64,000 nt of DNA from Candidatus Micrarchaeia archaeon (GCA_038870455.1 JAWCPB010000002.1:2247-66246); one strand, 5' to 3'. Counted from the stretch's first letter, positions 1,279 through 18,173 are shown. The notes: generated by a model not told the origin, from the letters alone. Numbers and translations are program-made.

Positions 1279-2058
1279 GTGGTTGCGGACATCGCGCTTG
1301 TGCTGACCGGCCTCCTGGTCGGCTTCCTTGTGGGCCTGACGAGCATAGGCACGGGCCTCGTGGGCACACCCACCCTCATCCTGCTTGGCGTGCCGCCGGC
1401 CGCGGCCGTCTCGGCCGAAATCATCCAGGGGACCGTGATGAAGGCGGTTGCCGTGATAAAGCATTGGCGCAGGGGGCGCGTTTTTCATTCCCTCGCGCTC
1501 AAGATGGTCGCGCTCGGCATTCCGGGCGCTGCCGCAGGCTCTTGGCTCTCCTCGCGGCTTGACGCCGCTGCCCTGTCGCAGGCGGTCGCGCTCATTCTCA
1601 TCGGCGTGTCGCTTCTCGTTGTTCTTGAGGCGTGGGCGAGCCGCAGGCAGGGCCCCTGCCGTGAGACCTTCCGCCCTCTCCTGAAAAACCGCGCTCTCAA
1701 CGATGCGCTCCTAGTCCTGCTGGGTGGCTGCGTGGGCTTTCTCTCGGGCCTCACGAGCATCGGCTCGGGCACCTTCATCGTCCTCCTCTTCCTGCTCTTC
1801 CTCCGCATCCCCACAGGCTGCTCTGTCGGCACCGCGACTTCGGCCGGCCTCCTCATCCTTTCAGCCGCCGCACTGTCGCATGCCTCGCTTGGTTCTGTTG
1901 ACCTTTCGCTCACCGCAAAGCTTCTCGCCGGCTCGCTTCCGGGCGTGTGGCTGGGCACCCATCTGCTGTCAAGAGCCCCGGCCCACCACATCCGCATAGC
2001 GATTGCCGCGCTCACGCTCGCGGGCGGGCTGAGGATTTTGACGGGTGTGCACCTTTAA
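1279..2058 (+). CDS. TauE/SafE (DUF81) family sulfite/sulfonate exporter-type membrane protein
   Basis: 259 aa with a GTG start. Two halves of multi-TM repeats carry the family-typical GFLVGLTSIGTG and GFLSGLTSIGSG glycine motifs. Confidence 0.7.
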   Translation: MVADIALVLTGLLVGFLVGLTSIGTGLVGTPTLILLGVPPAAAVSAEIIQGTVMKAVAVIKHWRRGRVFHSLALKMVALGIPGAAAGSWLSSRLDAAALSQAVALILIGVSLLVVLEAWASRRQGPCRETFRPLLKNRALNDALLVLLGGCVGFLSGLTSIGSGTFIVLLFLLFLRIPTGCSVGTATSAGLLILSAAALSHASLGSVDLSLTAKLLAGSLPGVWLGTHLLSRAPAHHIRIAIAALTLAGGLRILTGVHL

Positions 2059-2092
2059 ATACCCGTGAGGGCATAACATTCCACTTATTCTG

Positions 2093-2962
2093 GTGGGAGC
2101 TTTGAAGCCCTACTATCTGGCAAAACCCCCGGAGACCCCCCTCGCCCAGAGGCGCGCGCGAATGCTCTCGAGGGAGGAAGGCGAGCGGATTCTGGCGATG
2201 TCCCCGCGGGCCATCTCCGAGCTCTTGCGCAAGCCCGCTCCAGAGTACATTGATGCGGCCGTGCTCAAGCCATCGCGCAAGGGAGTTCGGCTGCTCGGCG
2301 AGATGGCGAGAAGCGAGGCGGAGGCCAGAGAGTTCCTCACCGCGCTCAGGGACATCGCGCTCACGAGCGAGGAGTTCGACGGAGTGGCCAGAAAGGAGCT
2401 CGCCAAAACCGCAGTCTCGCAAAACGCTGACCCGGAAGCCGCCAAGGCGGCCTTCATCCTCGCCGAGAGGGCCGGCCTTGCGATCGGCGAGCGCATCCGG
2501 CGAATTATCGTCGGCAGGCTCATCCTCACAGCCCCCACCACCATTCTCTCCGCAGCGCTTTCTGTCTTGGCTTTCGGCACAGCAGCGCTCGCTCTCGTGT
2601 TTGGGCGCATTTCAGACCTCATCGTCGCTCCGATTGCTGGCTTTTCAGGCTGGATCGCTCTCAAAGCCGCGCGCGCGGCCGGAAGCCGCTTTGCCGACAG
2701 CATCCGTATGGCATTAACTTTGGGAAAAAGGCTCGCCGGCTATGCTGCGGAGCTCAGAGATGCCGAGATCGCCGAGGTGCTGGAAAGCTCGGCTTGGGAG
2801 CGAGCCTTGCGCGAGGGCGTTCCGGCTACCCCCGCAGAGCTCAAAAAAGTGCTAGGGGACACCGAGCCCAAGACAGGAACGAATGCGCCGGACGCGGCCA
2901 GCGCGTTGGAGCTCACCGAGGAGGACATCGGCCGAGTCCTTAACAGAAAAAAGCGCGACTGA
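2093..2962 (+). CDS. Hypothetical protein with central hydrophobic segments
   Basis: 289-aa ORF with cluster-like codon usage and no recognisable motif. TM-like stretch [28 protein letters not shown]. Confidence 0.4.
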   Translation: MGALKPYYLAKPPETPLAQRRARMLSREEGERILAMSPRAISELLRKPAPEYIDAAVLKPSRKGVRLLGEMARSEAEAREFLTALRDIALTSEEFDGVARKELAKTAVSQNADPEAAKAAFILAERAGLAIGERIRRIIVGRLILTAPTTILSAALSVLAFGTAALALVFGRISDLIVAPIAGFSGWIALKAARAAGSRFADSIRMALTLGKRLAGYAAELRDAEIAEVLESSAWERALREGVPATPAELKKVLGDTEPKTGTNAPDAASALELTEEDIGRVLNRKKRD

Positions 2963-2982
2963 AATCACCAATTATTCTTAGC

Positions 2983-3011
2983 GGAATAAATTATTCAACA
3001 ATTTATTTAAA
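2983..3011 (+). promoter_or_regulatory. GGAATA box (2983-2988) plus TATA-like tttatttaaa (3002-3011) upstream of the ThrC-like gene
   Basis: Same motif arrangement as at 1214, 6822 and 9488, about 35 bp upstream of the start at 3045. Confidence 0.45.
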
Positions 3012-3044
3012 CTCCGCCCGCCTAAAGCCTTCTCTCCTTCCGAG

Positions 3045-4301
3045 GTGTTTCTCATAGCCCGCTATAACCTCAAGTGCAGGGAGTGCGGAAAGGGGTATCC
3101 CGCGGCCGAGCGGACGGTTTGCGATGACTGCTTTGGCCCTGTCAAGGTGAATTTCGAGCTGGCCGAGGTGGGCAGGACCTTCACAAAGGAGAACATCGCC
3201 CGCCGCCCGCTCTCACTGTGGCGCTACTTCGAGCTGCTTCCTGTCGATGACAGGAGCCGCATCGTTGACCTTGGCGCTGGCTACACGCCGCTCATCCACG
3301 CGAAGAAGTTAGGGGATAAGCTTGGCCTCAGGAAGCTCTACATCAAGAACGACTCGGTGAACCCGACCTTTTCCTTCAAGGACAGGCCCGTGACGGTCGG
3401 CATCACCAAGGCCATTGAGTTCGGCAAGAAGGTCATCTCATGCGCCTCAACGGGAAACCTGGCGGCCGCCAGCGCGGCCCACGCCGCAAAAGCAGGCCTG
3501 CCGTGTTTTGTGTTCATCCCCGCCGACATCGAGCTCAACAAAATAGCCCAGATTTTCGCCTACGGCGCGCGCGTCATTGCAGTCAACGGCATCTACGATG
3601 TGGCGAACCGCCTCTCCAATGAGGCGGCTGACCGCTTCGGCTGGGCCGTGCTGAACGTGAACATCCGGCCTTATTACGCGGAGGGCGAGAAGACCATCGC
3701 GTTCGAAACGTGCGAGCAGCTGGGCTGGGAGCTGCCTGACGCAGTGGTAATCCCCATCGGCAGCGGCGGCCTGCTCTGCGAGGTGGAGAAGGCCTTCAGG
3801 GAGCTGCGGGAGCTGCGCCTTGTGGCGGACAAACCAGTTCGCTTCTACGGCGCGCAGGGCGAGGGCGCCGACGCAGTCATTCGGGCGGTCAAGAAGGGCG
3901 GGCCGGTCGTTCCCATCAAGAACCCCAGGACAATCGCAAAGAGCATAATGTTCGGCGCGCCCGGCGACGGCGAGCACGCGCTACGCATCATCAGGGAGAC
4001 GCGGGGAGGGGGCGAGAACCCGGATGACAAGGAGATTCTTGAGGGCATTCGCCTGCTCGCCCAGACCGAGGGCATTCTCACCGAGCCAGCGGGCGGCACA
4101 ACCATCGGCGCGCTGAAGAGGCTGGCCGAGGGAGGCGCGTTTGATGCGGGCGATGTCGTGGTCGCGTTCATCACGGGCAACGGCCTCAAGACGCAGGAGG
4201 CGATTCCGAAAGGAAAGGCATACAGGATCGAGCCGAGGATAGAAGAGGTCGAGAGGATACTGAGAAGGCTTGGGAGGGAGAGCCATGGCAAAGGGGATTA
4301 G
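3045..4301 (+). CDS. Threonine-synthase-like fold-type II PLP enzyme with N-terminal Cys4 zinc ribbon
   Basis: 418 aa. N-terminal CRECG...CDDCFG zinc ribbon. NPTFSFKDRPV PLP-lysine motif typical of ThrC. GSGG and GNL segments of the ThrC/CysK fold. Its 3' end overlaps the MoaD-like gene by 32 nt. Confidence 0.85.
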   Translation: MFLIARYNLKCRECGKGYPAAERTVCDDCFGPVKVNFELAEVGRTFTKENIARRPLSLWRYFELLPVDDRSRIVDLGAGYTPLIHAKKLGDKLGLRKLYIKNDSVNPTFSFKDRPVTVGITKAIEFGKKVISCASTGNLAAASAAHAAKAGLPCFVFIPADIELNKIAQIFAYGARVIAVNGIYDVANRLSNEAADRFGWAVLNVNIRPYYAEGEKTIAFETCEQLGWELPDAVVIPIGSGGLLCEVEKAFRELRELRLVADKPVRFYGAQGEGADAVIRAVKKGGPVVPIKNPRTIAKSIMFGAPGDGEHALRIIRETRGGGENPDDKEILEGIRLLAQTEGILTEPAGGTTIGALKRLAEGGAFDAGDVVVAFITGNGLKTQEAIPKGKAYRIEPRIEEVERILRRLGRESHGKGD

Positions 4302-4569
4302 GGTGAGATTCTCCAGCGCGCTCAAGCCGCAGACGGGCGAGGCCGAGACAACCCTGCCCAAGGCCGGCAGTGTCGGGGAGGTTCTCGCCCTGCTTGTCAA
4401 GAAGTACGGCGAGGGCTTCCAGAAGCGCGTTTTCGACGAAAGCGGGAGCGTGCGCAGGTTCATCAACATCTATGTCAACGGCGAAGACATCCGCTTCAAG
4501 AATGGTCTGGCCAGCAGGCTCAAGGCTGGCGACGAGGTGCTCATTCTCCCCGCAGTGAGCGGCGGGTGA
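4270..4569 (+). CDS. MoaD/ThiS-like ubiquitin-fold sulfur-carrier protein number 1 (C-terminal GG)
   Basis: 99 aa (about 94 from the second Met). Ends ...VLILPAVSGG followed by stop. The beta-grasp pattern (IRVRF..., FINIYVNGEDIRF) resembles MoaD/SAMP. Confidence 0.8.
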   Translation: MGGRAMAKGIRVRFSSALKPQTGEAETTLPKAGSVGEVLALLVKKYGEGFQKRVFDESGSVRRFINIYVNGEDIRFKNGLASRLKAGDEVLILPAVSGG

Positions 4570-4573
4570 GGTA

Positions 4574-5323
4574 TTGGAGCTAAGCGATTACGACCTCAAG
4601 AGGTACGACCGGCAGATGCGCATTCACGGCTGGGGTGAGGAGGGGCAGAAGAGAATAAAGGCCGCAAAGGTGGGCGTCATTGGCACGGGGGGGCTTGGCT
4701 CCCCCCTCACAACCTACCTCGCGGTGGCGGGCGTGGGCAAAATAATCGCGGCCGACCGCGATGTGGTTGAGCTGTCGAACCTGAACAGGCAGATACTACA
4801 CTGGGACAAGGACATCGGCAGGAAAAAGGCAGAGAGCGCTGCCGAAAAGCTCAAGCAGGTCAATCCCTCCATTGAGGTGGTCGTCGTCGGCGAGGATGTG
4901 ACCGCGGAGAACATCGATAGGATATTTGAGGGCGTCGATGTCGTTGTTGACGGGCTGGACAATTACCCAAGCCGTTTCGTGCTCAACGAGTTCGCCGTGC
5001 GCAAGCGCATTCCGTTCGTTCACGGCAGCGTGTGGGGCATGGAGGGACGCGTGACAACCGTGATCCCAGGCAAGTCGCCTTGCCTGCGGTGCATCGTGCC
5101 CGAGGCCCCGCCGCGCGAGGTTTTTCCAGTGCTCGGCACAATTCCGGCTCTCGTGGCTACCATTCAGGCTACAGAGGTGCTCAAGTGCATAACGAAAGTT
5201 GGCCTGCTACTGACGGGCAGGCTGCTCGTCTACAATGGCGAGCACATGACTTTCGACGAGATTCCCCTCGAGAGGGACCCGGATTGTCCGGTGTGCTCGG
5301 CCCTCTGGACGAGCGAGGGCTGA
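4574..5323 (+). CDS. E1-like ThiF/MoeB/HesA family adenylyltransferase number 1
   Basis: 249 aa. YDRQMRIHGWGEEGQKRIKAAKVGVIGTGGLGS nucleotide-binding start. CLRC...CPVC zinc motif. No rhodanese domain. TGA stop at 5321-5323 lies in the same frame as the downstream CysK. Confidence 0.85.
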   Translation: MELSDYDLKRYDRQMRIHGWGEEGQKRIKAAKVGVIGTGGLGSPLTTYLAVAGVGKIIAADRDVVELSNLNRQILHWDKDIGRKKAESAAEKLKQVNPSIEVVVVGEDVTAENIDRIFEGVDVVVDGLDNYPSRFVLNEFAVRKRIPFVHGSVWGMEGRVTTVIPGKSPCLRCIVPEAPPREVFPVLGTIPALVATIQATEVLKCITKVGLLLTGRLLVYNGEHMTFDEIPLERDPDCPVCSALWTSEG

Positions 5324-6262
5324 GGTGGTTCCACGGCAAGATACGAGAGCGTCCTTGAGGCGATTGGCGGCACGCCGCTCATTCGCCTCAACAGGATAAC
5401 CAAGGGCCTGAAGCCTGTCATCTATGGCAAGCTCGAAGCCCGTAATCCAGCCTACTCAGTCAAGGACCGCATCGCGCTCGCCATGATCGAGGCAGCCGAG
5501 AGGCAGGGCGTGCTCAAACGCGGCTCAATCATCGTTGAGCCCACGAGTGGCAACACGGGCATCGGCCTCGCCATGGTGTGCGCGGTCAAGGGCTATCGCC
5601 TAAAGCTCACCATGCCCGAGAGCATGAGCCTGGAAAGGCGTGCCCTGTTGCGCGCTTTCGGCGCCGAGCTCATCCTCACCCCTGCCAGCGAAGGCATGCG
5701 CGGCGCTGTGGCGGCTGCAGAGGAGCTTGCCAGACAAGACAGGCACGTGTTCATCCCGCAGCAGTTCAAGAACAAGGCCAACGTGGAGATCCACAGGAAG
5801 ACAACCGCAGAAGAGATATGGCGGGATACAGAAGGGAAAATCACTCACTTTGTGGCCGGCGTGGGCACGGGCGGCACCATCACCGGGGTCGGGCAGGTGC
5901 TGAAGAAACGAAAGCCTTCAGTGAAAATCTATGCTGTCGAGCCTGCAGCTTCGCCCGTGCTGTCAGGCGGCAAGCCGGGTCCTCATAAGATTCAGGGCAT
6001 CGGCGCCGGCTTTGTGCCGGACATTCTCGACAGGAGCATCACCGACAGGATCATCCAGGTCTCGAACGAGGACGCGTTCGCCACAGCAAGGAGGCTCATC
6101 AGGGAAGAGGGCCTCCTTGTAGGAATCTCGGCTGGCGCGAACACCTGGGCAGCCCTCCAGGCCGCGGTGGAGGCGGACAAGGGCGACGTTATCGTCGTAG
6201 TGCTGCCCGATACGGGCGAGAGGTATATAAGCACAGACCTCTTTGCCGAATACAGGGAATGA
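5324..6262 (+). CDS. cysK: Cysteine synthase (O-acetylserine sulfhydrylase, CysK type) number 1; start unresolved
   Basis: Near-colinear with E. coli CysK from [19 protein letters not shown] through [11 protein letters not shown] (PLP lysine), [10 protein letters not shown] and [10 protein letters not shown]. The first in-frame ATG (5483) would delete the catalytic lysine. No ATG/GTG/TTG lies between the upstream in-frame TGA (5321) and the conserved N-terminus. Confidence 0.8.
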
Positions 6263-6263
6263 C

Positions 6264-6809
6264 ATGGCGTTGGATTTCCTGAAAACGCTTCTCGAGGACT
6301 TCACCACCCCATTCAAGAGAGACCCAGCAGCCACCAATATCCTAGAAGTGGTTTTCCTCTACCCCGGCGTGCATGCGATCCTGCTCCACCGCATCGCCCA
6401 CAGGCTGTGGCTATGGCGCATACCATTCATCCCGCGCGCGCTCAGCCACCTCAACCGGTTTCTCACAGGCATCGAGATTCACCCCGGCGCGACCATAGGC
6501 AGGCGTTTTTTTATTGACCACGGTGCGGGCGTGGTCATAGGCGAGACGGCCGAAATAGGCGACGACTGCACCCTTTATCAGGGTGTGACGCTCGGCGGCA
6601 CGGGCCTGCAGAGGGGCAAGCGCCATCCAACAGTCGAAAAGGAGTGTGTCATAGGCGCCGGCGCCATTCTGCTGGGGCCCATCCGCATAGGTCATCACAG
6701 TCGCATTGGCGCGGGCAGCGTGGTCAACAAGTCCTTCCCGCCCTATTCAACAGTCGTTGGTGTGCCGGGACGTGCGGTGACCAAGAGCACCTTCATCTAC
6801 CAGATATAG
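6264..6809 (+). CDS. cysE: Serine O-acetyltransferase (short form)
   Basis: Left-handed beta-helix hexapeptide repeats ([41 protein letters not shown]...RHP) like CysE. ATG at 6264 sits 1 nt after the cysK stop. An alternative ATG lies at 6243. Confidence 0.8.
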
Positions 6810-6821
6810 CCAATTCTGATT

Positions 6822-6854
6822 GGAATAGTTTAGTCAAAAATTTATTTAAATAAG
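6822..6854 (+). promoter_or_regulatory. GGAATAG box (6822-6828) plus TATA-like tttatttaaataag (6841-6854) upstream of the ATP-grasp gene
   Basis: AT-rich island in the 64-bp cysE/ATP-grasp gap. A CCAAT..ATTGG inverted repeat lies immediately upstream. Confidence 0.45.
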
Positions 6855-6873
6855 AATACAAGAAATACTGGGC

Positions 6874-8097
6874 ATGGCTGTTGGCATACTCCACGCGCAG
6901 GGACTCCTTGAGTTTGATGATCCCGCAAACGTCATATCCGGCCGAGCCGACAGGTCCGGAGTAATCCTCGCGGGGTTGGAGGCCAAACTGCGTGCTAAAG
7001 GTGTGGAAGTTATCCGCATTTCCAGTGAGAGCCTGAAAGGCGAATTCACCTCACCCCCGAACCTCTCCGTGCTCTACGTATTCCCGCTGTGCGCCAAGTA
7101 TTTTGAAGACCTGCCCAAAAAAGTTCGGACGAAGCTTGAGGAATGGGATGAGCGGGGCCTGCTCTTCAACCCGCTCGGAGCGCTTATCGCCCAAACAGAC
7201 AAGCGCGCCACGACCGAGGCATTCAAAAAGCACGGGGTTGCCATTCCGGAGACGCTCATCTCGTCAAACAGCAACGAGCTGGCTGCGTTCGTGAAAAATC
7301 ACCGCGTAGCAATCCTCAAGCCCACACACGGTGCTGGCGGCGGCAACATCCTCTTCCTGGTCTGGAAGGACGGGACGGTGTACGCCCGCGTGCCGCAGGA
7401 TGGCCGCATCGTCGAGCTGCCGTGTGAGTTCAAGCACTACACCACTCGCCATTCAAGACTTTACTCCGCGCACACCCACGATGGGCGTGTGCACATCCAT
7501 GGCGAGGTTGTTGTGCAGGAGGTCATCCAGCCGGAAGGGCGCTGGAACGAGAGCGTGCTCAAGGTGTATGTCGTGGATGGCAGGGCCGCTTTCGGGGTGG
7601 AACTCACGCGCAGCGCGAGCACCCCGGAAGAATCCATAATCACGTATGCGAACGCGGAACACAGGCTGGTGGATGTCAAATCGATCCCAAAAGAGGCCGT
7701 GGAGCTGGCCGTCAAGGCCGCCGCTGCGCTGGGCCTGCGCGCCTGCCTCGTTGATCTGATTAAAAAGAATGGGGGCTGGGTGGCGCTCGAGACCAACGGA
7801 GACAACATCTACACCATCCACGATAGGGGGTACCGTTTTGCGCAGGGTTTCAAACCAGAGTTTGATTTTGATGAGCATCTGGCCTCTGCGTTGGCCGCCC
7901 GCGACACTCTTTCGGACCGCAAGCGCGCTCCGGACAACCGCAGGGACAAGCACGTCTGCGCTCCTCTTCCCGTCAGCCCGGATCCGTTCGCGCGCGCCAA
8001 GGGCGTGACCCTCCCGCGCCCAGGCCAGGCAGGAGAGGGCCGGCAGCCTCTCTCGCTCGCCCAGGCTGGAAAGCCTAATAAAATCACGGTGAAATAA
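6874..8097 (+). CDS. ATP-grasp family ligase (RimK/GshB-like fold) with low-complexity C-terminal tail
   Basis: 407 aa. VAILKPTHGAGGGNILFLV glycine-rich ATP-binding loop. Overall N-domain, central-domain and C-domain layout of ATP-grasp enzymes. Pro/Arg-rich tail of about 80 aa. Confidence 0.6.
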   Translation: MAVGILHAQGLLEFDDPANVISGRADRSGVILAGLEAKLRAKGVEVIRISSESLKGEFTSPPNLSVLYVFPLCAKYFEDLPKKVRTKLEEWDERGLLFNPLGALIAQTDKRATTEAFKKHGVAIPETLISSNSNELAAFVKNHRVAILKPTHGAGGGNILFLVWKDGTVYARVPQDGRIVELPCEFKHYTTRHSRLYSAHTHDGRVHIHGEVVVQEVIQPEGRWNESVLKVYVVDGRAAFGVELTRSASTPEESIITYANAEHRLVDVKSIPKEAVELAVKAAAALGLRACLVDLIKKNGGWVALETNGDNIYTIHDRGYRFAQGFKPEFDFDEHLASALAARDTLSDRKRAPDNRRDKHVCAPLPVSPDPFARAKGVTLPRPGQAGEGRQPLSLAQAGKPNKITVK

Positions 8098-8105
8098 GCG
8101 GTTGT

Positions 8106-9011
8106 ATGGCAGGAAAAAAAAGGCCGGGAATCCTCTCCGCGATTGGAAACACGCCGCTGGTTGAGCTCGTCAAACTCAATCCCTCGCGCCCGCGCGTGCG
8201 CATCCTCCTCAAGCTCGAGGGCCACAACCCCACGGGAAGCCTCAAGGATCGCATAGCCCTCTACATGATTGAGAAGGCGGAGGAAAGGGGCGAGCTGACA
8301 AAGGGGAAAACTGTTCTAGAGGCCACGAGTGGCAACACGGGCATCGGCCTCGCCATGGTGTGCGCCGCCAAGGGCTATCCCTTCGTGGCGTGCATGAGCG
8401 AGAGGGAGAGCGCGGAGAGGAGGAAGATAATGAAGGCTTTCGGCGCAGAGATCATCCTCACGCCCGCAGAGCAGGGAACAGACGGAGCGATAAGGAGGGC
8501 GGACGAGCTGGCCGCCGCCCACCCGGAAAAATACTTCGTGCCGCGCCAGCACAGCAATCCGGACAACGCGCTCGCGCACTATGAGACGACGGGCCCAGAA
8601 ATCTGGGCACAGGCGAAGGGGGATGTCGATGTCTTCATCGCGGGCATCGGCACAACGGGCACGCTCATGGGTGTCGGCAGGTTCCTCAAGGAAAAGAACC
8701 CGCACGTGAAAGTCATCGGCGTGGAGCCGGCAGAGAAGCACAGGCTGTACGGCCTGCGCAACCTCACCGCCGCCATGGTGCCGCCCATCTTCAACCCCTC
8801 CCTGCTTGATGACAAGGTGCGCGTGGCCGATGAGCACGCCTACAGACTGACGAGAGAGCTCGCGCGCGCCGAAGGCGTATTCGCCGGAATCAGCACGGGC
8901 GCGGTCGTGTGGGCCGCCCTGGAGGCCGCGAAGTCGCTCGGCAGGGGCACGATAGTCGCGCTCTCGCCCGACAGGGGCGACAAGTACCTGAGCATCCCGG
9001 ATTTATTCTGA
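8106..9011 (+). CDS. cysK: Cysteine synthase (CysK/CysM type) number 2
   Basis: 301 aa. IGNTPLVEL...NPTGSLKDRIA (PLP lysine), [20 protein letters not shown]. Own ATG 8 nt after the ATP-grasp stop. Confidence 0.85.
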   Translation: MAGKKRPGILSAIGNTPLVELVKLNPSRPRVRILLKLEGHNPTGSLKDRIALYMIEKAEERGELTKGKTVLEATSGNTGIGLAMVCAAKGYPFVACMSERESAERRKIMKAFGAEIILTPAEQGTDGAIRRADELAAAHPEKYFVPRQHSNPDNALAHYETTGPEIWAQAKGDVDVFIAGIGTTGTLMGVGRFLKEKNPHVKVIGVEPAEKHRLYGLRNLTAAMVPPIFNPSLLDDKVRVADEHAYRLTRELARAEGVFAGISTGAVVWAALEAAKSLGRGTIVALSPDRGDKYLSIPDLF

Positions 9012-9039
9012 AACTATTCTTTTTTGAAATCCCTCTCGG

Positions 9040-9477
9040 GTGATGGCATTCGGCGCACGAAACAATCTTGTTGGGCCTGTGGGCGGAGCATTCTACGGGC
9101 CTGGAGGGAATCCGCACTGCCGCCCGCGCAACTGGTTTGGACTGGGCGACGGAGCCAAGCGCAGGCTTTCCAGCTGCGTGGGGCGCGTTGGAGAAAACGG
9201 CTTCTGTCTGAGGGCTACTGAGGTGTTTCGCGATGCCGCATTATCCGAGAGGGAGGAGATTTTGCACGGCGCGCTCGAGGCGCTCAGGAGGGAAAAGGAG
9301 GAAAACGGGCGTGTTCCCAGGGAGCTCTTGAAAAAAATCGTCAGGCTCATCGAAATAGACGCCTGGGCCGCGCGCCGCGTGCTGCAGGACTTCATCGGCG
9401 CGCTGAGGGCCGAGCGCAGCGAGGCCCTACCGCTCTTTGTCAAGCTCAAGGACTACTCAAACGCGAAGGCAACGTGA
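9040..9477 (+). CDS. Hypothetical protein (C-terminal half helical); start uncertain
   Basis: 145-aa ORF in the operon gap between cysK number 2 and MoaD number 2. No motif recognised. No JAMM signature. Confidence 0.3.
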   Translation: MMAFGARNNLVGPVGGAFYGPGGNPHCRPRNWFGLGDGAKRRLSSCVGRVGENGFCLRATEVFRDAALSEREEILHGALEALRREKEENGRVPRELLKKIVRLIEIDAWAARRVLQDFIGALRAERSEALPLFVKLKDYSNAKAT

Positions 9478-9487
9478 TATTCTTTTC

Positions 9488-9517
9488 GGAATAAAACTTA
9501 TAGGAAATTATTTATAT
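9488..9517 (+). promoter_or_regulatory. GGAATA box (9488-9493, in tttcggaataaaa) plus TATA-like attatttatat (9507-9517) upstream of MoaD number 2
   Basis: Same tttcggaata sequence as at 1211-1219. Lies in the AT-rich island 9478-9520. Confidence 0.45.
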
Positions 9518-9549
9518 GCGCACGACGGAATATCCTCGGGTGGTTTCCT

Positions 9550-9825
9550 TTGGTGAAGATAAGGTTCTCTTCAGCGATCGCCGCTGCGGTGAGGGGCGAG
9601 GCGGAGGCCACGCTGGACTTCGAGGGGGACGTCGCGGCGCTGCTCGCGCTTCTCTCCCAGAAGTACGGCGAGGGCTTTCAGAAGCGCATTCTCTCGGGCG
9701 GAAGGATAAACGGCTTCGTCAGCGTGTATCTCAACGGCGAGGACATCCGCTTTCTCAAGGACGTTCAGACCCGGGTGCGGAACGGCGACACGATATACAT
9801 CACTCCGGCCGTGTCGGGGGGCTGA
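9550..9825 (+). CDS. MoaD/ThiS-like sulfur-carrier protein number 2 (C-terminal GG)
   Basis: 91 aa with a TTG/GTG start. Ends ...IYITPAVSGG plus TGA. Paralogous to carrier number 1 (shared YGEGFQKR, NGEDIRF). Confidence 0.8.
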   Translation: MVKIRFSSAIAAAVRGEAEATLDFEGDVAALLALLSQKYGEGFQKRILSGGRINGFVSVYLNGEDIRFLKDVQTRVRNGDTIYITPAVSGG

Positions 9826-9830
9826 GCCCC

Positions 9831-10625
9831 GTGCCGCTGAGCCTGACCGAGCTCAAGCGCTACTCGCGCCAGCTCATCCTGCCGAACTTCGGCGCGAGAG
9901 AGCAGCGGAGGCTGAAGAACGCGAGGGTGGTCGTCACGGGAGCCGGCGGCATCGGCTGTCCCGTGCTGCTCAACCTCGCCGCCAGCGGCGTGGGAAGCAT
10001 AACAATCATAGACAGCGACAGCATTGACCTCACGAACTTGAACAGGCAGTTCCTCTTCACGCCAGCGGATGTGGGAAGGCCAAAGGCGGTGGTGGCCGCA
10101 GAGCGCATCCGCGCGTTCAATCCGGACATCGAGGTCAGGCCCGTTGTGAAGGTCATCGACTACTCCAACGCGTTCGACCTCCTCAAGGGCTTTGACGCAA
10201 TCATCGACGGCACGGACAACTTCGCCGCGCGCTATGCGATAAACGACGCCGCCGTGCTCAACAGGACCCCGCTGTTTCACGCCGCCGTTCTGCAGTACGA
10301 GGGACGCGTCTTCACCGTCATTCCCGGAAAGAGCGCCTGCCTGCGCTGCGCCTTCCCGGTCATCCCGCCAAAGGGAAGCATCCCCACCTGCAGGGAGGCG
10401 GGAGTTCTCGGAAGCGTCATAAGCGTGCTGGCAGGCATCCAGGCCACTGAGGCGATCAAGCACCTGGCCGGCCAGGGCGCGCGCCTGACCGACAGGATGC
10501 TGGTTTTCGACGGCAGGACCATGTCTTTCGACGAATTCCGCTTCAGGAGGAGGAGGGAGTGCAGCGCGTGCGGCCAAAAGGGCTTCACTTCCTCGCCGGT
10601 GTATCAAGAGGTTTGTGACATATGA
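9831..10625 (+). CDS. E1-like ThiF/MoeB adenylyltransferase number 2
   Basis: GTG at 9831, 5 nt after the MoaD number 2 stop. LKRYSRQLIL...ARVVVTGAGGIGC. CLRC...CSAC zinc motif. The ORF-track 5' extension (9516) is probably spurious. Confidence 0.8.
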   Translation: MPLSLTELKRYSRQLILPNFGAREQRRLKNARVVVTGAGGIGCPVLLNLAASGVGSITIIDSDSIDLTNLNRQFLFTPADVGRPKAVVAAERIRAFNPDIEVRPVVKVIDYSNAFDLLKGFDAIIDGTDNFAARYAINDAAVLNRTPLFHAAVLQYEGRVFTVIPGKSACLRCAFPVIPPKGSIPTCREAGVLGSVISVLAGIQATEAIKHLAGQGARLTDRMLVFDGRTMSFDEFRFRRRRECSACGQKGFTSSPVYQEVCDI

Positions 10626-10861
10626 AACAGATCCACGAGCTTGACCTGAGGGGCGAGAGGTGCCCTGACACCTTCACCTACACGAAGATTCGGGCGGAGG
10701 AGCTGCGGGAAGAGGGCAGGGCCGGCGACATCCTCAAGGTGATTGTCGACAACGAGCTCAGCGCCAGGGACGTTCCGGCGAGCATGCAGCTCGAGGGGCA
10801 CAGGGTGATAGAGGTCAGGAAGGCGAACGGGCTGTGGGAGCTTTTTTTCGAGATTAAATAG
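10622..10861 (+). CDS. TusA-like sulfurtransferase (CPxx motif)
   Basis: 79 aa. LDLRGERCPDTFTYTKIRAEEL matches the TusA/SirA LDxxGxxCP...K pattern. ATGA overlap with the E1 number 2 stop. Confidence 0.65.
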   Translation: MKQIHELDLRGERCPDTFTYTKIRAEELREEGRAGDILKVIVDNELSARDVPASMQLEGHRVIEVRKANGLWELFFEIK

Positions 10862-11911
10862 GTGGTTGAAATCAGGGAATGGGATGATGCTCTTGGCCTG
10901 ACCCCGCGGCTTGACTGCGGCCTGTGCGGGCTGGACTGCGGCGCGCTGGCCCGCAGGGCGCTCGCAGGAGCGAGCGAGTTCTCGGAGTGCATTCCCGCCA
11001 GGCAGAGCCCGCAGGCCGCGCCCGCGTTCGCAGAGCTGAGGCGAAAGCACTCGCCCTCGCGCCTGCCGGAGCCGAGGAAGGACGTGCTTGTCGTGCGCCC
11101 ATGCATCGATGTCGCGAACAGGGTGAGCGGCGAGGCGAACATCCGCCACTGGTCGCCATCCCCCTACCCGCCCTTTGACTCGGTGTATCTGGAGCATGCG
11201 TTGCGCACCAGCGGAGCCTTTGGCAACGTCAAGTACTCGCCCTCGCTTGGCATCGCAAACCTTCTGCTCAGCGAAGGGAGAGGAGTTGTCTTCTCCCGCT
11301 CCGGAAAAGCCATCGCGCGCGCCGCTTTCGACCTCAATGACTTGGAGAAAACATTCTCACTCGTTTCCCTGGTCTCCTGGCCCGCCGCGGTCTGCGGCGA
11401 ATGCGGTTCTCTCGCAATCGACTGCGCCATAGGCGCGTGCAACGCCTGCGGCGCCTGCCACGCCTCGCGCGTTCCCCCCTCCACAAACCTGCAGTCATCT
11501 GTACCGAGCCGCCGCGCCACCCCAGCCGTTTCCCTCCTCTCGCCCGCGGCGAATCACGCGATTGAAGGGATCGGAGCAGAGCCTGCACTCGAGAGTGCCG
11601 AGAAAAGAGCGTTCGCGCTGCTGCTCGAGGGCGATGCCGGCGCGCTGTTCCTCCTTGGGCTCGCCAAGCAGCTTCGCTTTCTCGCAGACGGGCTGGCCAG
11701 GGCAGGAGGGGGCCGGCAGCTGAAGAAAATCGCCAGGGAGGCCTGGGAGGCTCTCGAGACGGGGGATAAGAAAAAGGCGGAGCACGCTGCCGGAGATGCC
11801 GCGCGGGCTTTAGCCGAGCTCAAGCGCGGCTTTTCAGAAGGCGGGCAGGTTTGGGCCGCCAAGGCCGCAGGGGCATCGCTTAAAATAGCACGCGCTGCAA
11901 CAAAGCTCTGA
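10862..11911 (+). CDS. Cys-rich protein with two putative Fe-S-cluster (PF04060-like) domains
   Basis: 349 aa with a GTG start directly after the TusA stop. LDCGLCGLDCGALARRALAG and CGECGSLAIDCAIGACNACGAC resemble the CxxCGxxxCxxxA Fe-S domain of corrinoid/Fe-S proteins. The rest is uncharacterised. Confidence 0.5.
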   Translation: MVEIREWDDALGLTPRLDCGLCGLDCGALARRALAGASEFSECIPARQSPQAAPAFAELRRKHSPSRLPEPRKDVLVVRPCIDVANRVSGEANIRHWSPSPYPPFDSVYLEHALRTSGAFGNVKYSPSLGIANLLLSEGRGVVFSRSGKAIARAAFDLNDLEKTFSLVSLVSWPAAVCGECGSLAIDCAIGACNACGACHASRVPPSTNLQSSVPSRRATPAVSLLSPAANHAIEGIGAEPALESAEKRAFALLLEGDAGALFLLGLAKQLRFLADGLARAGGGRQLKKIAREAWEALETGDKKKAEHAAGDAARALAELKRGFSEGGQVWAAKAAGASLKIARAATKL

Positions 11912-11920
11912 GGTGCGCGA

Positions 11921-13396
11921 ATGGCGCTGCGCGTGCACAACACCCTATCCAAGAGGCTCGAGGAATTTGTTCCGGGCGAGCCGGGCTTGGTGCGCATGTA
12001 CGTGTGCGGCCTGACCCCATACGACAGATTCCACCTCGGCCACGCGCGTACTTACGTTGCCTTTGACATCATAAGGCGGTACCTCGAGTTCGTCGGCTAT
12101 CGCGTGCTGCACGTTCAAAACATCACTGACGTGGATGACAAGATACTCAACCGTGCAAGGGAGCGCAGCGAGGAGCCTCTGGCGATGGCGGAGCACTTCA
12201 GCAAGCTCGCCATGCAGGAGTCCGACCTCCTCGGCATACGGAGGGCGCACCACTATCCCAAGGTCAGCGAGCACATTCCAGAAATAATCTCCCTCGTCGA
12301 ACGCATTGCCAGCAAGGGCTTTGCCTACGAGACAGAGGACGGCGTGTATTTCGACGTCGAAAAATTCCCTGGCTATGGCAAGCTCAGCGGGCAAAAGCTT
12401 GATGAGATAAAAGCTGGCGCGCGCATCGCCGTGGATGAGAGGAAGAGGCACCCGGCTGACTTCGCGCTTTGGAAGAAGTGGAAGCCCGGCGAGGCGCTCG
12501 CCTGGGACTCGCCCTGGGGGCGGGGCAGGCCGGGCTGGCACATCGAATGCTCCGCCATGAGCGCGAAGTACCTCGGCCAGTCGTTCGACATCCACGGCGG
12601 GGGCAGCGACCTCATCTTTCCCCATCACGAGAACGAAATCGCCCAGAGCGAGGCGGCGAGCGGAAAACAGTTTGCGCGCTACTGGCTTCACACAGGCTGG
12701 CTGACCGTGAAGAAGCAGAAGATGGCAAAGTCGCTCAAGAACTTCATCACGGTGGAGGGGGCGCTGGCCAAGTGGGAGCCCGAGGTGCTGCGGCTGTTTT
12801 TCGCCTCCACACACTACCGCTCCCCGCTCGACTTCAACGAGGGCTCGCTTGAGGCCGCGCGCGCGGGCTTGGCCACGCTGCGCAGCGCGCTGTACAACGC
12901 CGCAGAGGCAAGGCCCTCGAGGGGCCGCCCGGCAAAGTGGCTCGAGGAGGCTGTTGCCAAGCACAGGGAGGCCTTTCTGGCGGCCATGGACAACGACTTC
13001 GACACCAGCACCGCGCTCGCCCACCTGTTCGAGATCGCCAAGCACATAAACACGTACATCAACGAGGGGAAAATCGACAGCCACGTGCTCGAGCACGCGG
13101 TCGCCGAGTACAAGAGCCTCGCGGGCATACTCGGCCTGCTCGAGAGCCTTCCCAGGAAAATAGCGAGTGAAGAGGATACCGCCCGGCTCAGGGTGCTTGC
13201 GGCCTCGCTGGGCGTGGACAGTGAAAAAGCAGAGCGCCTCGGCTTCACCGAGCTCATGTCGCTCGTGATCGCCGAGAGGGAGAAGGCGAGGAAGGCAAAG
13301 GACTTCGCGAGGGGCGACGAGATCAGAAAGGCGCTGCGCGGCCTCGGCATAGCCATCGAGGACACTCCAAGGGGAACGGTCTGGCGGTTTGCATGA
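11921..13396 (+). CDS. cysS: Cysteinyl-tRNA synthetase
   Basis: 491 aa. HLGHARTY (HIGH), KMAKSLKN (KMSKS), class I fold and C-terminal anticodon-binding helices. Confidence 0.9.
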   Translation: MALRVHNTLSKRLEEFVPGEPGLVRMYVCGLTPYDRFHLGHARTYVAFDIIRRYLEFVGYRVLHVQNITDVDDKILNRARERSEEPLAMAEHFSKLAMQESDLLGIRRAHHYPKVSEHIPEIISLVERIASKGFAYETEDGVYFDVEKFPGYGKLSGQKLDEIKAGARIAVDERKRHPADFALWKKWKPGEALAWDSPWGRGRPGWHIECSAMSAKYLGQSFDIHGGGSDLIFPHHENEIAQSEAASGKQFARYWLHTGWLTVKKQKMAKSLKNFITVEGALAKWEPEVLRLFFASTHYRSPLDFNEGSLEAARAGLATLRSALYNAAEARPSRGRPAKWLEEAVAKHREAFLAAMDNDFDTSTALAHLFEIAKHINTYINEGKIDSHVLEHAVAEYKSLAGILGLLESLPRKIASEEDTARLRVLAASLGVDSEKAERLGFTELMSLVIAEREKARKAKDFARGDEIRKALRGLGIAIEDTPRGTVWRFA

Positions 13397-14418
13397 CTGC
13401 GCGTGAGAAGGAAAAGGAGGCTCTCTACTGGCGCGTGCTCAAGGGCGACGCGCTGCAGTGCACGCTGTGCCCTCACTGGTGCACAATTCTCGAGGGAAGA
13501 AGGGGAAGGTGCAGGGTCAGGGAGAACAGGCGCGGCAGGCTCTACTCGCTGGTCTACGGCAAGCCGTCGGCGATTCAGATAGACCCCATTGAGAAAAAAC
13601 CGAACTTTCACTTCCTGCCCGGCTCGCTGTCGTATTCCATTGGCACGGTGGGCTGCAACCTGAGGTGCGCCTTCTGCCAGAACTGGCAGCTTTCGCAGGC
13701 GAGCCCCGGCGACCTGCCGCATTATGATCTCCCACCACAGGCGGTTGTTGACGAGGCGCTGCGGTACGGCTGCGCCTCGATCGCCTATACCTACAACGAC
13801 CCAGTGGTGTTCATCGAATACGTCATGGACACGGCCAGGCTCGCCCGTCCGCGAGGGCTGCGGAGCGTTTTCGTCACGGCTGGCTTCATCAACCCGCAGC
13901 CGCTCGACGAACTGTGCGGGCTCATCGACAGCGCGCATGTCGATCTCAAGGGATTCAGCGAGCAGTTTTACAGGGAAGTGAGCGGTGCCCGCCTCGCCCC
14001 AGTGCTTGCCACGCTGAAGACGCTCAAGAAAAGGGGCATCTGGTTCGAGGTCATTCACCTCACCGTGCCGGGCCTCTCGGACGACCCTGATGAGATTCGC
14101 ATGATGTGCGAGTGGATGCGGGAGAACATCGGCACAGAAGTCCCGCTTCACTTCACCCAGTTCCACCCGGAGTACAAGATGCTGACCACGCCCGTCACCC
14201 CAGTCGCATCGCTCGAGCGCGCTCACGCCATCGCGAAAGACGTGGGCCTAGAGTATGTCTATGTCGGCAACGTTCCCGGCCACCCTCTCGAGAACACCTA
14301 CTGCCCGAAATGCAACAACCTCCTCATCGAGAGGTGGGGGTTCGAAATACTAAAGAATCTAATACCGGAAGGTATGTGTCCTTACTGCGGCAAAAAACTT
14401 GCTGGAGTATGGCGATAG
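13393..14418 (+). CDS. Radical SAM enzyme, AmmeMemoRadiSam-system type (PFL-activase-like)
   Basis: 341 aa. CNLRCAFCQN (CxxxCxxC). The LQCTLCPHWCTI N-terminal Cys cluster is typical of this family. 4-nt overlap with cysS. Confidence 0.75.
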   Translation: MTAREKEKEALYWRVLKGDALQCTLCPHWCTILEGRRGRCRVRENRRGRLYSLVYGKPSAIQIDPIEKKPNFHFLPGSLSYSIGTVGCNLRCAFCQNWQLSQASPGDLPHYDLPPQAVVDEALRYGCASIAYTYNDPVVFIEYVMDTARLARPRGLRSVFVTAGFINPQPLDELCGLIDSAHVDLKGFSEQFYREVSGARLAPVLATLKTLKKRGIWFEVIHLTVPGLSDDPDEIRMMCEWMRENIGTEVPLHFTQFHPEYKMLTTPVTPVASLERAHAIAKDVGLEYVYVGNVPGHPLENTYCPKCNNLLIERWGFEILKNLIPEGMCPYCGKKLAGVWR

Positions 14419-14537
14419 GCCAGGGTGGCAGAGCGGCTATGCAGCCGGCTGCAGACAACCTTTTGCCGGCGGTCCGGCAAAAGCGTTGACGGAAAAGCAG
14501 TCACCGGCGCAGGGGAGTTCAACTCTCCCCCCTGGCT
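14419..14537 (+). tRNA. tRNA-Cys (anticodon GCA) containing a 48-nt intron (14455-14502) at canonical position 37/38
   Basis: Perfect 7-bp acceptor stem (GCCAGGG / CCCTGGC). T-arm GGGAG-TTCAACT-CTCCC. D-arm GCA/AGCGGCT/TGC. Anticodon stem GCCGG/CCGGC once 14455-14502 is removed, giving loop CUGCAGA (GCA at 14451-14453). Discriminator U73, the tRNA-Cys identity element. The intron forms a BHB-like motif (bulges AG|A and UC|A flanking a CTGC/GCAG helix) plus a 10-bp internal hairpin. The gene starts 1 nt after the radical-SAM stop. Confidence 0.8.
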
Positions 14538-14646
14538 TTTAACTTCGCCAGAGAACGGAGCAGCGCGTGCAGCCTTGCTGAAGAGCGCGCCCTCAGCTTG
14601 AGCGGGCGGCGCATGGAAAAGAACAGGCGCGGCGCGCAGCCCCCTG

Positions 14647-17274: not shown

Positions 17275-17895
17275 ATGCAGAAAGTCGTCGCGCTTCTCTC
17301 GGGCGGCATCGACTCGCCTGTCGCGGCCTGGCTGGCCGCGCGCGCCGGCCTCGAGCCCGTGCTCGTGCATTTTGACAACAGGCCCTTTTCCTCGGGCGAC
17401 AGCCTAGTGTGCGTGCTCAAGGTCGCCGCCAGGCTGCGGGAAAAGCTCGGAAAACTTGAGGGCTATCTCATCCCGCACGGCGGCGATGTCGCCGCCTTCC
17501 TGCGCGCCTGCTCTCCACACAACACGTGCATCCACAGCAGGCGGCATATGCATCGCGTGGCGGCCCTGCTCGCCGCCAGGCTCGGCGCGTCCGCGCTCGT
17601 GGCCGGCGACTTCATCGCCTCGAAGGCCTCCCAGACTCCGCAGAACCTCGCCGTGCTCGACAGCGCCTCGTCCCTGCCTGTTCTCAGGCCGCTTGCCGGG
17701 CTCGGCAAGGAGGAGATAGAGCGCATGGCCAGGCTGCTGGGGACGTTTGAGCTCGCCTCGCTTCACCCGACCTGCACCGCAACGCCCGAAAAGCCAAGCA
17801 CAGGAGCGCGGCTGGAGGAGGTTCTTGCGGACGAGGCGAAGCTTGACGTTGGAAAAATGGCAGCGCGCTCTCTCGCGGCCGCGACGCCGTTGTGA
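17275..17895 (+). CDS. ThiI-like PP-loop ATP pyrophosphatase domain protein (no THUMP or rhodanese domain)
   Basis: 206 aa. VVALLSGGIDSPVAAWL (SGGxDS PP-loop). RPLAGLGKEEI resembles the ThiI RPLIGMDKxEI segment. Confidence 0.6.
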   Translation: MQKVVALLSGGIDSPVAAWLAARAGLEPVLVHFDNRPFSSGDSLVCVLKVAARLREKLGKLEGYLIPHGGDVAAFLRACSPHNTCIHSRRHMHRVAALLAARLGASALVAGDFIASKASQTPQNLAVLDSASSLPVLRPLAGLGKEEIERMARLLGTFELASLHPTCTATPEKPSTGARLEEVLADEAKLDVGKMAARSLAAATPL

Positions 17896-18173
17896 TGTCC
17901 ATGGAGCTTTTTGTACTCAAGCCGTGCAGGACAGGGCGGGACTACGAGCTGCACCCGAGGAAGAAGATGGAGGTGGACCTGAAGGGCGCGGCGGCCCTCC
18001 TCTCGCGCGCTGGTTTTGAAGTCGAGCTCGCCACGCCCCTCGTGCTTTTCCTCAGGCTCGGCGTGGTGGGGCTCGCCCTGTACAAGAGCGGGCGCGTTCT
18101 CGTCAGGGGGGCTGGCAGCGAACAGGCGGCCGGCGAAATAGGCAGGAGGCTGTACTCCTCGCTCGCGGGCTAG
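17892..18173 (+). CDS. Hypothetical small protein
   Basis: 93 aa. ATGA overlap with the ThiI-like gene. No motif recognised. Confidence 0.3.
   Translation: MMSMELFVLKPCRTGRDYELHPRKKMEVDLKGAAALLSRAGFEVELATPLVLFLRLGVVGLALYKSGRVLVRGAGSEQAAGEIGRRLYSSLAG

Follow-up and report, generated by a model that had tools for sequence, protein, structure and literature searches.

Gene content and organization

The stretch of DNA analysed here (the window) is 64,000 nucleotides (nt) long and comes from a Candidatus Micrarchaeia archaeon of the DPANN group (GCA_038870455.1, JAWCPB010000002.1:2247-66246). Between positions 1279 and 14538 its plus strand carries a 13-kb island of 16 protein genes and one intron-bearing tRNA-Cys gene, all in the same orientation, including two small carriers of the beta-grasp, ubiquitin-like MoaD/ThiS fold (MoaD1 and MoaD2), each beside an E1-like adenylyltransferase (E1-1 and E1-2), together with a ThrC-like enzyme, CysK, CysE and a CysM-type cysteine synthase. 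We interpret the island, with the qualifications set out below, as a site of cysteine and homocysteine synthesis. A model given only the sequence had listed these same-strand genes and named their families (the original prediction), and Pfam and NCBIfam profile scans bore the assignments out.

By the layout of its promoters the island is four transcription units, each with a promoter of its own, rather than a single operon. The first holds TauE and an unknown protein of 289 amino acids (aa); the second the ThrC-like enzyme, MoaD1, E1-1, CysK and CysE; the third an ATP-grasp ligase, the CysM-type enzyme and an unknown 145-aa protein; and the fourth MoaD2, E1-2, TusA, an Fe-S protein, cysteinyl-tRNA synthetase (CysRS), a radical-SAM (S-adenosylmethionine) enzyme and tRNA-Cys. 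Within units the genes are separated by 0-12 nt or overlap by 4-17 nt, so the tight packing that had been described is confirmed. The notion of one super-cluster survives as a co-directional island, but with four promoters it describes a regulon island and not a super-operon. Related loci used for comparison are labelled L001, L002 and so on, L006 being from Hecatella and L007 from a thaumarchaeote; gene order is syntenic with the window in L001, L002, L008 and L088.

A common operator and its candidate regulator

The palindrome ATTC-N6-GAAT has four exact matches in the 64 kb, against 0.59 expected (0 of 100 shuffles). They stand in front of the tauE, thrC-like, ATP-grasp and moaD2 genes, and the window has no others. 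When one mismatch is allowed in the longer form TATTC-N6-GAATA, there are six matches against 0.35 expected, all within promoters of the island. The spacing between the palindrome and a TATA box of the TATTTA type is exactly 15 nt in each of the four promoters. Promoter 1 (1218-1264) has the palindrome TATTCCTTTTTGAATA at 1218-1233 and a TATA box at about 1245-1257; promoter 2 (2973-3012) has TATTCTTAGCGGAATA and a TATA box at 3000-3012; promoter 3 (6812-6858) has AATTCTGATTGGAATA and a TATA box at 6839-6851; and promoter 4 (9478-9517) has TATTCTTTTCGGAATA and a TATA box at 9505-9517. Promoters 1 and 3 each contain a second, one-mismatch copy of the operator (1249-1264 and 6843-6858), formed by the TATA box and a downstream GAATA. 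Its distance from the distal copy is exactly 31 bp in both promoters, which hints at a pair of binding sites that cooperate, one covering the TATA box.

Only three promoter islands had been recognized in the original prediction; besides the four described above there is a vestigial fifth. In L001, L002 and L088 an additional operator copy precedes the ORF (open reading frame) that corresponds to the 145-aa protein, and the promoter is intact there (L001 10211-10270, L088 8102-8170). The window has lost it through a deletion of about 45 bp at the equivalent position (9003-9040), where the one-mismatch half-remnant ATTCTTTTTTGAAA persists.

The operator and TATA architecture is retained in relatives whose ThrC-like proteins are 56-91% identical to that of the window. 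Among these relatives, it occurs between the HTH-CBS gene (see below) and the thrC-like gene in L003, and upstream of the thrC-like gene, upstream of sulfite reductase and between Sat and AprBA in L004 and L005. It is also found ahead of a ThrC-ThiS-ThiF operon in the thaumarchaeote. A control set of unrelated loci gave 22 matches per 967 kb. Archaeal ThrC-MoaD loci do not in general have the operator, which accompanies only 3 of 75 metagenomic ThrC-like loci and is missing from Hecatella.

The identical operator and TATA spacing at four units implies that a single transcription factor probably controls them all. Divergent from the island, on the minus strand at 619-1179, lies a gene for a protein with a helix-turn-helix (HTH) domain and a CBS pair (Pfam HTH_3 and CBS), and such a divergent gene accompanies the thrC-like gene in the window, L001, L002, L003, L088 and Hecatella. 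We infer that this HTH-CBS protein is the best candidate for the operator-binding factor, and possibly it senses SAM or another adenosyl ligand; the CBS pair of MJ0100 reportedly binds SAM and methylthioadenosine (Lucas and colleagues, 2010). No Rfam family is matched in the window at gathering thresholds, and there is no riboswitch; the operator and the divergent HTH-CBS gene are found instead.

Module 1: a ThrC-like enzyme, a carrier and an E1

The ThrC-like gene (3045-4301) encodes a PLP (pyridoxal phosphate) enzyme of the ThrC family with an N-terminal Zn ribbon of the form CxxC..CxxC (PALP, 241 bits; TIGR00260, 286 bits). The gene for MoaD1 (4285-4569) overlaps it by 17 nt and is followed by that for E1-1 (4574-5323; ThiF, 253 bits). 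MoaD1 and its counterpart in the fourth unit, MoaD2, both match the beta-grasp model PF02597 (55 and 39 bits) and both end in SGG. Each stands beside an adenylyltransferase of the ThiF/MoeB type (249 and 264 aa) in which the rhodanese domain is missing, as had been proposed. The Cys of the crossover loop has been lost from E1-1 through a 6-aa deletion, and is kept in E1-2 and in the E1s of L004, L007 and L088; with this residue missing, E1-1 can presumably only adenylate its carrier.

The pairing of ThrC-like and MoaD-like genes extends well beyond the Micrarchaeia. We collected 80 metagenomic neighbourhoods of ThrC-like genes and counted those with enough downstream sequence: the next gene is MoaD-like in 66 of 76 (87%), and an E1 lies downstream in 30 of 60. 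The same order of ThrC-like and MoaD-like genes is seen in Hecatella and a thaumarchaeote. Homologues about 50% identical to the window protein carry the label "threonine synthase" in Thaumarchaeota, Bathyarchaeia, Hadarchaeota and others, and we know of no use that a threonine synthase would have for a sulfur carrier. In the actinobacterium Nonomuraea gerenzanensis a SAM riboswitch (RF00162, 68.7 bits) precedes a ThrC-like gene and then a gene for a 91-aa MoaD-like protein ending in AVAGG. The Nonomuraea enzyme has the same N-terminal Zn ribbon and aligns with the window protein at 46% identity and 324 bits, above the 191-235 bits obtained with solved threonine synthases; its MoaD-like partner is 39% identical to MoaD1.

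Both the adjacency of ThrC-like and MoaD-like genes and the riboswitch-linked homologue match what is reported for MetM/MetO of Streptomyces albulus, where O-phosphohomoserine and the thiocarboxylate of MetO reportedly give homocysteine (Hasebe et al. 2024, Appl Environ Microbiol 90:e01247-24). Module 1 is accordingly predicted to be an archaeal homocysteine synthase of the MetM/MetO type with an E1 of its own.

The simplest arrangement among the relatives, ThrC-MoaD-E1-TusA, is that of L004 and L005, where it adjoins genes for Sat, AprAB, sulfite reductase and siroheme synthesis. Other relatives have the ThrC module alone. Two variants were noted in passing. In L003 a degenerate second MoaD-like copy (12290-12628) follows the E1, is 49% identical to MoaD1 and has a C-terminus that extends past the Gly-Gly position. 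The thaumarchaeal E1 (L007 7514-8629) is longer by about 110 aa at its C-terminus; this extension shows no likeness to rhodanese by eye, no domain search having been made.

Module 2: a CysM-type enzyme and the second carrier

The enzyme at 8106-9011, which had been taken for a second CysK, is of the CysM type, judging from TIGR01136 (cysKM; 377 bits, cut-off 344) and a loop alignment: the GIRRW loop of E. coli CysM aligns with the GLRN of the window enzyme without gaps, and the loop is 7 residues shorter than in enzymes of the CysK type. The Arg in this short substrate loop is presumably of functional importance. The fourth unit opens with MoaD2 (9550-9825), about 50% identical to MoaD1, followed by E1-2 (9831-10625; ThiF, 280 bits), which keeps the loop Cys (PTCREAG), and by a TusA/SirA sulfurtransferase (10622-10861; PF01206, 57 bits). 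Rhodanese-less E1s in sulfur-assimilation operons have been reported always to come with SirA/TusA (Iyer, Burroughs and Aravind 2006, PMC1779556).

L088 carries the genes for the ThrC-like enzyme, the ATP-grasp ligase, CysM, a 147-aa ORF, one MoaD2-type carrier, one E1-2-type enzyme, TusA, the Fe-S protein, CysRS and the radical-SAM enzyme, and is without MoaD1, E1-1, CysK and CysE. A single carrier/E1 pair thus stands there beside both PLP enzymes, which suggests that the duplication in the window is accessory and not essential. The original prediction of a carrier system duplicated and fused into one locus accordingly holds for a narrow clade of Micrarchaeia but not for L088, nor for the relatives that have only the ThrC module.

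Outside the clade the nearest relatives of the CysM-type enzyme are bacterial (55-61% identity). In about 16 of 80 loci cysM is directly followed by cysS, including loci of Nanoarchaeota, Aenigmatarchaeota, Syntrophales and Thermodesulfobacteriota (L019, L021, L023, L024, L026, L027, L030, L031, L035, L039, L041, L047, L051, L057, L063 and L078). The two genes look like a pair whose order has been conserved. From this pairing elsewhere it follows that the window may hold an old cysM-cysS pair into which a carrier cassette was inserted. Module 2 resembles the CysM/CysO theme, though its linkage appears lineage-specific and the case for it is weaker than that for module 1.

CysK and CysE

CysK (O-acetylserine sulfhydrylase A, 5333-6262; TIGR01139, 457 bits) and the serine O-acetyltransferase CysE (6264-6809; TIGR01172, 234 bits) complete the second unit. 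CysE ends in ...YQI, a C-terminal Ile that we take to fit the formation of a CysK-CysE complex. At the start position of cysK the window has ACG (5333-5335), where three relatives have ATG (MPRYDN...). No ATG, GTG or TTG lies upstream of the PLP-lysine, the next in-frame ATG (5483) falls past that lysine, and a Shine-Dalgarno-like GAGGTG is found a few bases upstream of the ACG. Initiation at a non-canonical codon, recent inactivation by mutation or a fault in the assembly could each account for the ACG. A fusion of E1-1 to CysK by readthrough of TGA was considered and rejected: TGA is the commonest stop (30 of 60), and relatives have a stop and then ATG, the junction in L001 and L002 being a double stop followed by ATG.

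Accessory proteins of the third and fourth units

The ATP-grasp ligase (6874-8097) appears only in this lineage. A gap of 8 nt separates its gene from cysM, which follows; in L088 the two overlap by 4 nt. The nearest named relatives are alpha-L-glutamate ligases of the RimK/MptN type and GshB, all with weak scores, and a sequence search of solved structures gave marginal GshB/LysX matches only. The 349-aa Fe-S protein (10862-11911) has at its N-terminus a cluster motif of PF04060, which with 19.3 bits stays under the cut-off of 23, as well as another Cys-rich motif and a helical tail. It is identical to protein QXH27_00580 of an NCBI metagenome-assembled genome; solved structures yielded no match to it in a sequence search. 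Among 5.8 billion proteins the ATP-grasp ligase and the Fe-S protein have two clusters each, their own sequence and the L088 orthologue. AlphaFold models, each built from a two-sequence alignment, reached pLDDT (predicted local distance difference test) values of 37 and 47, respectively, too poor for a fold search. The unknown 145-aa protein is encoded at 9040-9477, behind the deleted promoter.

A profile search of 1.84 billion representative sequences found 76 distant relatives of the Fe-S protein, the named ones being archaeal hypothetical proteins. Ten were scanned; all share the N-terminal 200 residues, and nine of the ten match PF04060 above threshold. The family occurs in four independent contexts. 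In one the Fe-S protein comes after ThiI and SufS; in another it stands between SufS and a ParB/Srx-like protein; in a third it follows a CBS protein; and in the last it precedes an unknown ORF, tRNA-Cys and CysRS, not far from a ThiI PP-loop gene. The recurrence of SufS, ThiI, CysRS and tRNA-Cys ties the family to sulfur mobilisation and cysteine, and our guess is that the Fe-S protein acts as a reductant or relay for TusA and the E1.

Several smaller observations concern the same family. Relatives next to SufS or to tRNA-Cys/CysRS are found at L090 4843-7221, L173 565-3736 and L091 6001-9494, and it is in L091 that the ThiI PP-loop gene lies near the homologue. The ParB/sulfiredoxin-like protein that follows a Fe-S relative in Bathyarchaeota has 148 aa and the motif DGHHR. 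A few kb downstream of the island, the window has a PP-loop-only ThiI gene (206 aa, 17275-17895), overlapped by 4 nt by a 93-aa ORF with no family match (the pair spans 17275-18173). Two supposed kinships were rejected: a "KSG..V.GA" domain shared by the Fe-S protein, this 93-aa ORF and the tail of the thaumarchaeal E1, for which a profile gave 6 bits, and a relationship of the Fe-S protein to the 179-aa ORF after TusA in L004, which proved unrelated on comparison.

Proposed pathway and alternatives

We propose that the island serves co-regulated synthesis of cysteine and homocysteine by way of two ubiquitin-like sulfur carriers, under control of the operator, and we put the probability of this reading at roughly 0.6. 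It builds on the gene content, promoter architecture, synteny and family-wide coupling of ThrC-like and MoaD-like genes observed above; the substrates, the sulfur source, the identity of the regulator and the use of MoaD2 by the CysM-type enzyme are deduced from what is known of the families. Each E1 would adenylate the C-terminal Gly-Gly of its own carrier, and sulfur, arriving as sulfide or as a TusA persulfide, perhaps with the Fe-S protein as reductant or relay, would convert the adenylate to the carrier thiocarboxylate (carrier-COSH). The ThrC-like enzyme would then make homocysteine from carrier-COSH and O-phosphohomoserine, as in MetM/MetO. The CysM-type enzyme would make cysteine from O-phosphoserine or O-acetylserine with MoaD2-COSH, sulfide or thiosulfate, as in CysM/CysO. 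CysK and CysE would provide the ordinary route from free sulfide, and the cysteine would be consumed by CysRS and tRNA-Cys.

A number of facts weigh against this proposal. In the CysO and HcyS systems the amino acid is freed from its carrier by a hydrolase; no such enzyme of the JAMM/Mec type is encoded within the window, though it may be encoded elsewhere in the genome. The linkage of these genes in relatives, which the original prediction had made one of its tests, holds for synteny in L001, L002, L008 and L088, but outside the lineage no more than 2 of 79 loci have a carrier or E1 near cysM, one a Chloroflexi locus with the order MoaD-E1-TusA-MoaD-CysM and the other with an E1 alone; in the window itself an ORF and a promoter separate moaD2 from cysM. 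The operator is rare outside Micrarchaeia, with the 3 of 75 metagenomic ThrC-like loci cited above, and cysK has no canonical start codon here. Finally, the proposal does not explain the roles of the ATP-grasp ligase, the radical-SAM enzyme and the Fe-S protein, and the NCBI equivalog TIGR00260 (cut-off 167) would call the ThrC-like enzyme a threonine synthase.

The alternative that survives best, though we consider it unlikely, is that only module 1 depends on a carrier. MoaD2, E1-2, TusA and the Fe-S protein would then be a general sulfur relay that is merely co-regulated, serving tRNA thiolation or cofactors or feeding the ThrC-like enzyme. The sulfur donor of CysM would be free sulfide or thiosulfate, as for its relatives in bacteria. 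The scarcity of carriers beside those relatives agrees with this, as does the frequency with which cysS directly follows them, also in DPANN. The sole pair in L088, which is of the MoaD2 type, must there serve the ThrC-like enzyme, homologues of the Fe-S protein adjoin SufS, ThiI and CysRS/tRNA-Cys, and the ThiI PP-loop gene lies at 17275-17895. However, the MoaD2 operon is under the same operator as the sulfur-assimilation genes, the island has no thiolation enzyme of the NcsA/MnmA type, the Chloroflexi locus joins carriers, E1, TusA and CysM, and operons of cysteine synthase, carrier and E1 are a known theme (PMC1779556).

A bolder version of the two-carrier pathway strikes us as rather improbable when taken as a whole. 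It would make the island a JAMM-independent dual-carrier system in which TusA and the Fe-S family load the E1-carrier adenylates, the RimK-like ATP-grasp ligase performs a new step in cysteine handling, and a SAM-sensing HTH-CBS protein switches everything through an operator common to Micrarchaeia and some Thaumarchaeota, the outcome being autonomous synthesis of cysteine and methionine.

We attach little probability to the ThrC-like enzyme being a genuine threonine synthase, or making another product (cysteine from O-phosphoserine, or cysteate), with a MoaD pairing that has nothing to do with homocysteine. The TIGR00260 score points that way; cysteate synthase is also a ThrC homologue, although the match here is weak, and a cyanobacterial homologue has threonine-related activities (PMC12172450). 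Against it stand the sulfur carrier directly downstream in 87% of homologous loci, the SAM riboswitch ahead of the actinobacterial homologue, a score against that homologue far above those of solved threonine synthases, and the frequent misannotation of MetM as threonine synthase (GapMind 2026). Least credible of all is that the MoaD/E1 pairs are modifiers of the SAMP/UbaA type (sampylation) or parts of molybdopterin synthase, unrelated to amino-acid synthesis: MoaD1 barely attains the cut-off of the NCBIfam model SAMP1 (60.1 against 60; MoaD2, 40.5) and passes moaD_arch, and UbaA is the second-best NCBIfam match of the E1s after MoeB PRK08762, but the UbaA scores of E1-1 and E1-2 (243 and 250) are far below the cut-off of 450, E1-1 lacks the thioester-forming loop Cys, neither MoaE nor JAMM was seen in the window, and gene context and the shared operator indicate sulfur assimilation.

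Searches for missing partners

The original prediction had remarked that JAMM proteases, cysteine desulfurases and sulfite or adenosine phosphosulfate (APS) reductases are missing from the window, and our searches agree. A motif scan found no JAMM signature in any ORF of at least 70 aa in the 64 kb, and with tblastn neither SufS/NifS nor sulfite reductase, ATP sulfurylase or AprAB had a match in the window. Pfam scans of part of the ORFs outside the island turned up none of these enzymes either. The island has no member of the Cys_Met_Meta_PP family (MetY-type, fold-type I), its PLP enzymes being of fold-type II (PALP). The MoeZ model scored 217 and 246 against E1-1 and E1-2, below its cut-off of 647. 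Both carriers already end in Gly-Gly, so no carrier maturation should be needed.

Relationship to described systems

As far as the underlying chemistry can be judged from the genes, it is already known: protein-thiocarboxylate routes have been described for CysO/CysM, HcyS/MetY and MetO/MetM, as has the solution of joining an E1 with TusA. The kinship to CysO/CysM/MoeZ put forward in the original prediction was right in kind; the closer match to MetM/MetO and the theme of E1 with SirA/TusA, published in 2006, had been overlooked.

In MetM/MetO, as in the window, a ThrC-family PLP enzyme is directly followed by a small carrier of the MoaD/ThiS fold that ends in GG and is served by an E1. The Zn ribbon and the 46% identity are shared with the riboswitch-linked actinobacterial homologue, a comparison that does not extend to S. 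albulus MetM itself. The window system differs in being archaeal (DPANN), in its dedicated E1 without rhodanese (and, in E1-1, without the loop Cys), in a carrier that needs no C-terminal trimming, in the absence of Mec/JAMM from the window, and in having a palindromic operator and a candidate HTH-CBS regulator in place of the riboswitch.

Burns and colleagues reportedly described in 2005 the cysteine route of Mycobacterium tuberculosis through CysM, CysO, MoeZ and Mec+. The window resembles it in combining a CysM-type sulfhydrylase, a GG-ended carrier and an E1 in one locus, beside the free-sulfide route of CysK and CysE. Unlike that system, the window has an E1 without rhodanese followed by TusA and a Fe-S protein, no JAMM, a carrier not adjacent to cysM, an ATP-grasp gene translationally coupled to cysM, and a locus merged with cysS and tRNA-Cys. 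Gene neighbourhoods that match the CysM/CysO theme are listed in rows 4c-4d of PMC1779556; row 4e of its Table 1 gives sulfur operons of ThiS/MoaD, rhodanese-less E1, SirA (TusA) and JAB, including HcyS/HcyF/HcyD/MetY of Wolinella. The latter share with the window a rhodanese-less E1 and TusA/SirA beside sulfur-assimilation enzymes, to which L004 and L005 add Sat, AprAB and sulfite reductase, whereas the window has a ThrC-family enzyme in place of MetY, no JAB and two carrier/E1 pairs. SAMP1-3 and UbaA of Haloferax are likewise archaeal GG-ended beta-grasp proteins with a rhodanese-less E1, but the window proteins score under the UbaA cut-off, E1-1 has no catalytic Cys and the context is metabolic.

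The novelty lies in the combination of features in this lineage: the host is a DPANN archaeon; there are two carrier/E1 pairs, one of which lacks the Cys; no JAMM was found in the 64 kb; two accessory proteins are rare; the locus is merged with cysS and tRNA-Cys; and, above all, there is the shared operator with its candidate HTH-CBS regulator. DPANN archaea are usually held to rely on hosts for amino acids. Some Micrarchaeota have already been reported to make cysteine (PMC8561730), and a self-contained, co-regulated island for cysteine and homocysteine would mean that some Micrarchaeia retain amino-acid autonomy. The module of ThrC-like enzyme and MoaD, with or without E1, which was published for Streptomyces in 2024, is indicated to be widespread in archaea; metabolic reconstructions of Thaumarchaeota, Bathyarchaeia and others that rely on "threonine synthase" labels may therefore mis-score the synthesis of both threonine and methionine. 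The conserved operator defines a testable archaeal sulfur/methionine regulon with a candidate regulator, and the Fe-S family and the ATP-grasp enzyme are concrete unknowns of archaeal sulfur trafficking.

Other features of the island and window

TauE/SafE (1279-2058; PF01925, 148 bits) is a sulfur-anion permease of the TSUP family. Its gene is not present in L001 and L002; L088 has at this position a gene with a near-identical 5' end for which no family was recorded. The 289-aa protein that follows (2093-2962) has hydrophobic segments, is 84% identical in L001 and has no Pfam or NCBIfam match.

CysRS is encoded at 11921-13396 (TIGR00435, 519 bits), overlapped by 4 nt by the gene for a radical-SAM enzyme of the AmmeMemoRadiSam type (13393-14418; TIGR04337, 393 bits). 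The gene for tRNA-Cys(GCA) follows at 14419-14537 (14418-14538 by ARAGORN), with a 48-nt intron (14455-14502) at the canonical position 37/38. It was found by intron-aware ARAGORN only; default ARAGORN and Rfam at gathering thresholds miss it because of the intron. This intron, the promoters of TATA type and the best matches of the proteins all assign the window to a genome of Candidatus Micrarchaeia. In L008 (about 14339-14426) the intron of tRNA-Cys is 17 nt long against 48 nt in the window, though the flanking genes are about 90% identical; ARAGORN miscalls this gene as tRNA-Arg(GCG), and the default tRNA and Rfam searches miss it too.

Elsewhere in the window, two adjacent radical-SAM genes lie on the minus strand at 50423-52866, one of them with a BATS domain. 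Genes resembling AIR synthase, DUF447, pterin-binding proteins, GTP cyclohydrolase and PTPS are found nearby, and the region may be a cluster for biosynthesis of a cofactor of the pterin or deazaflavin type.

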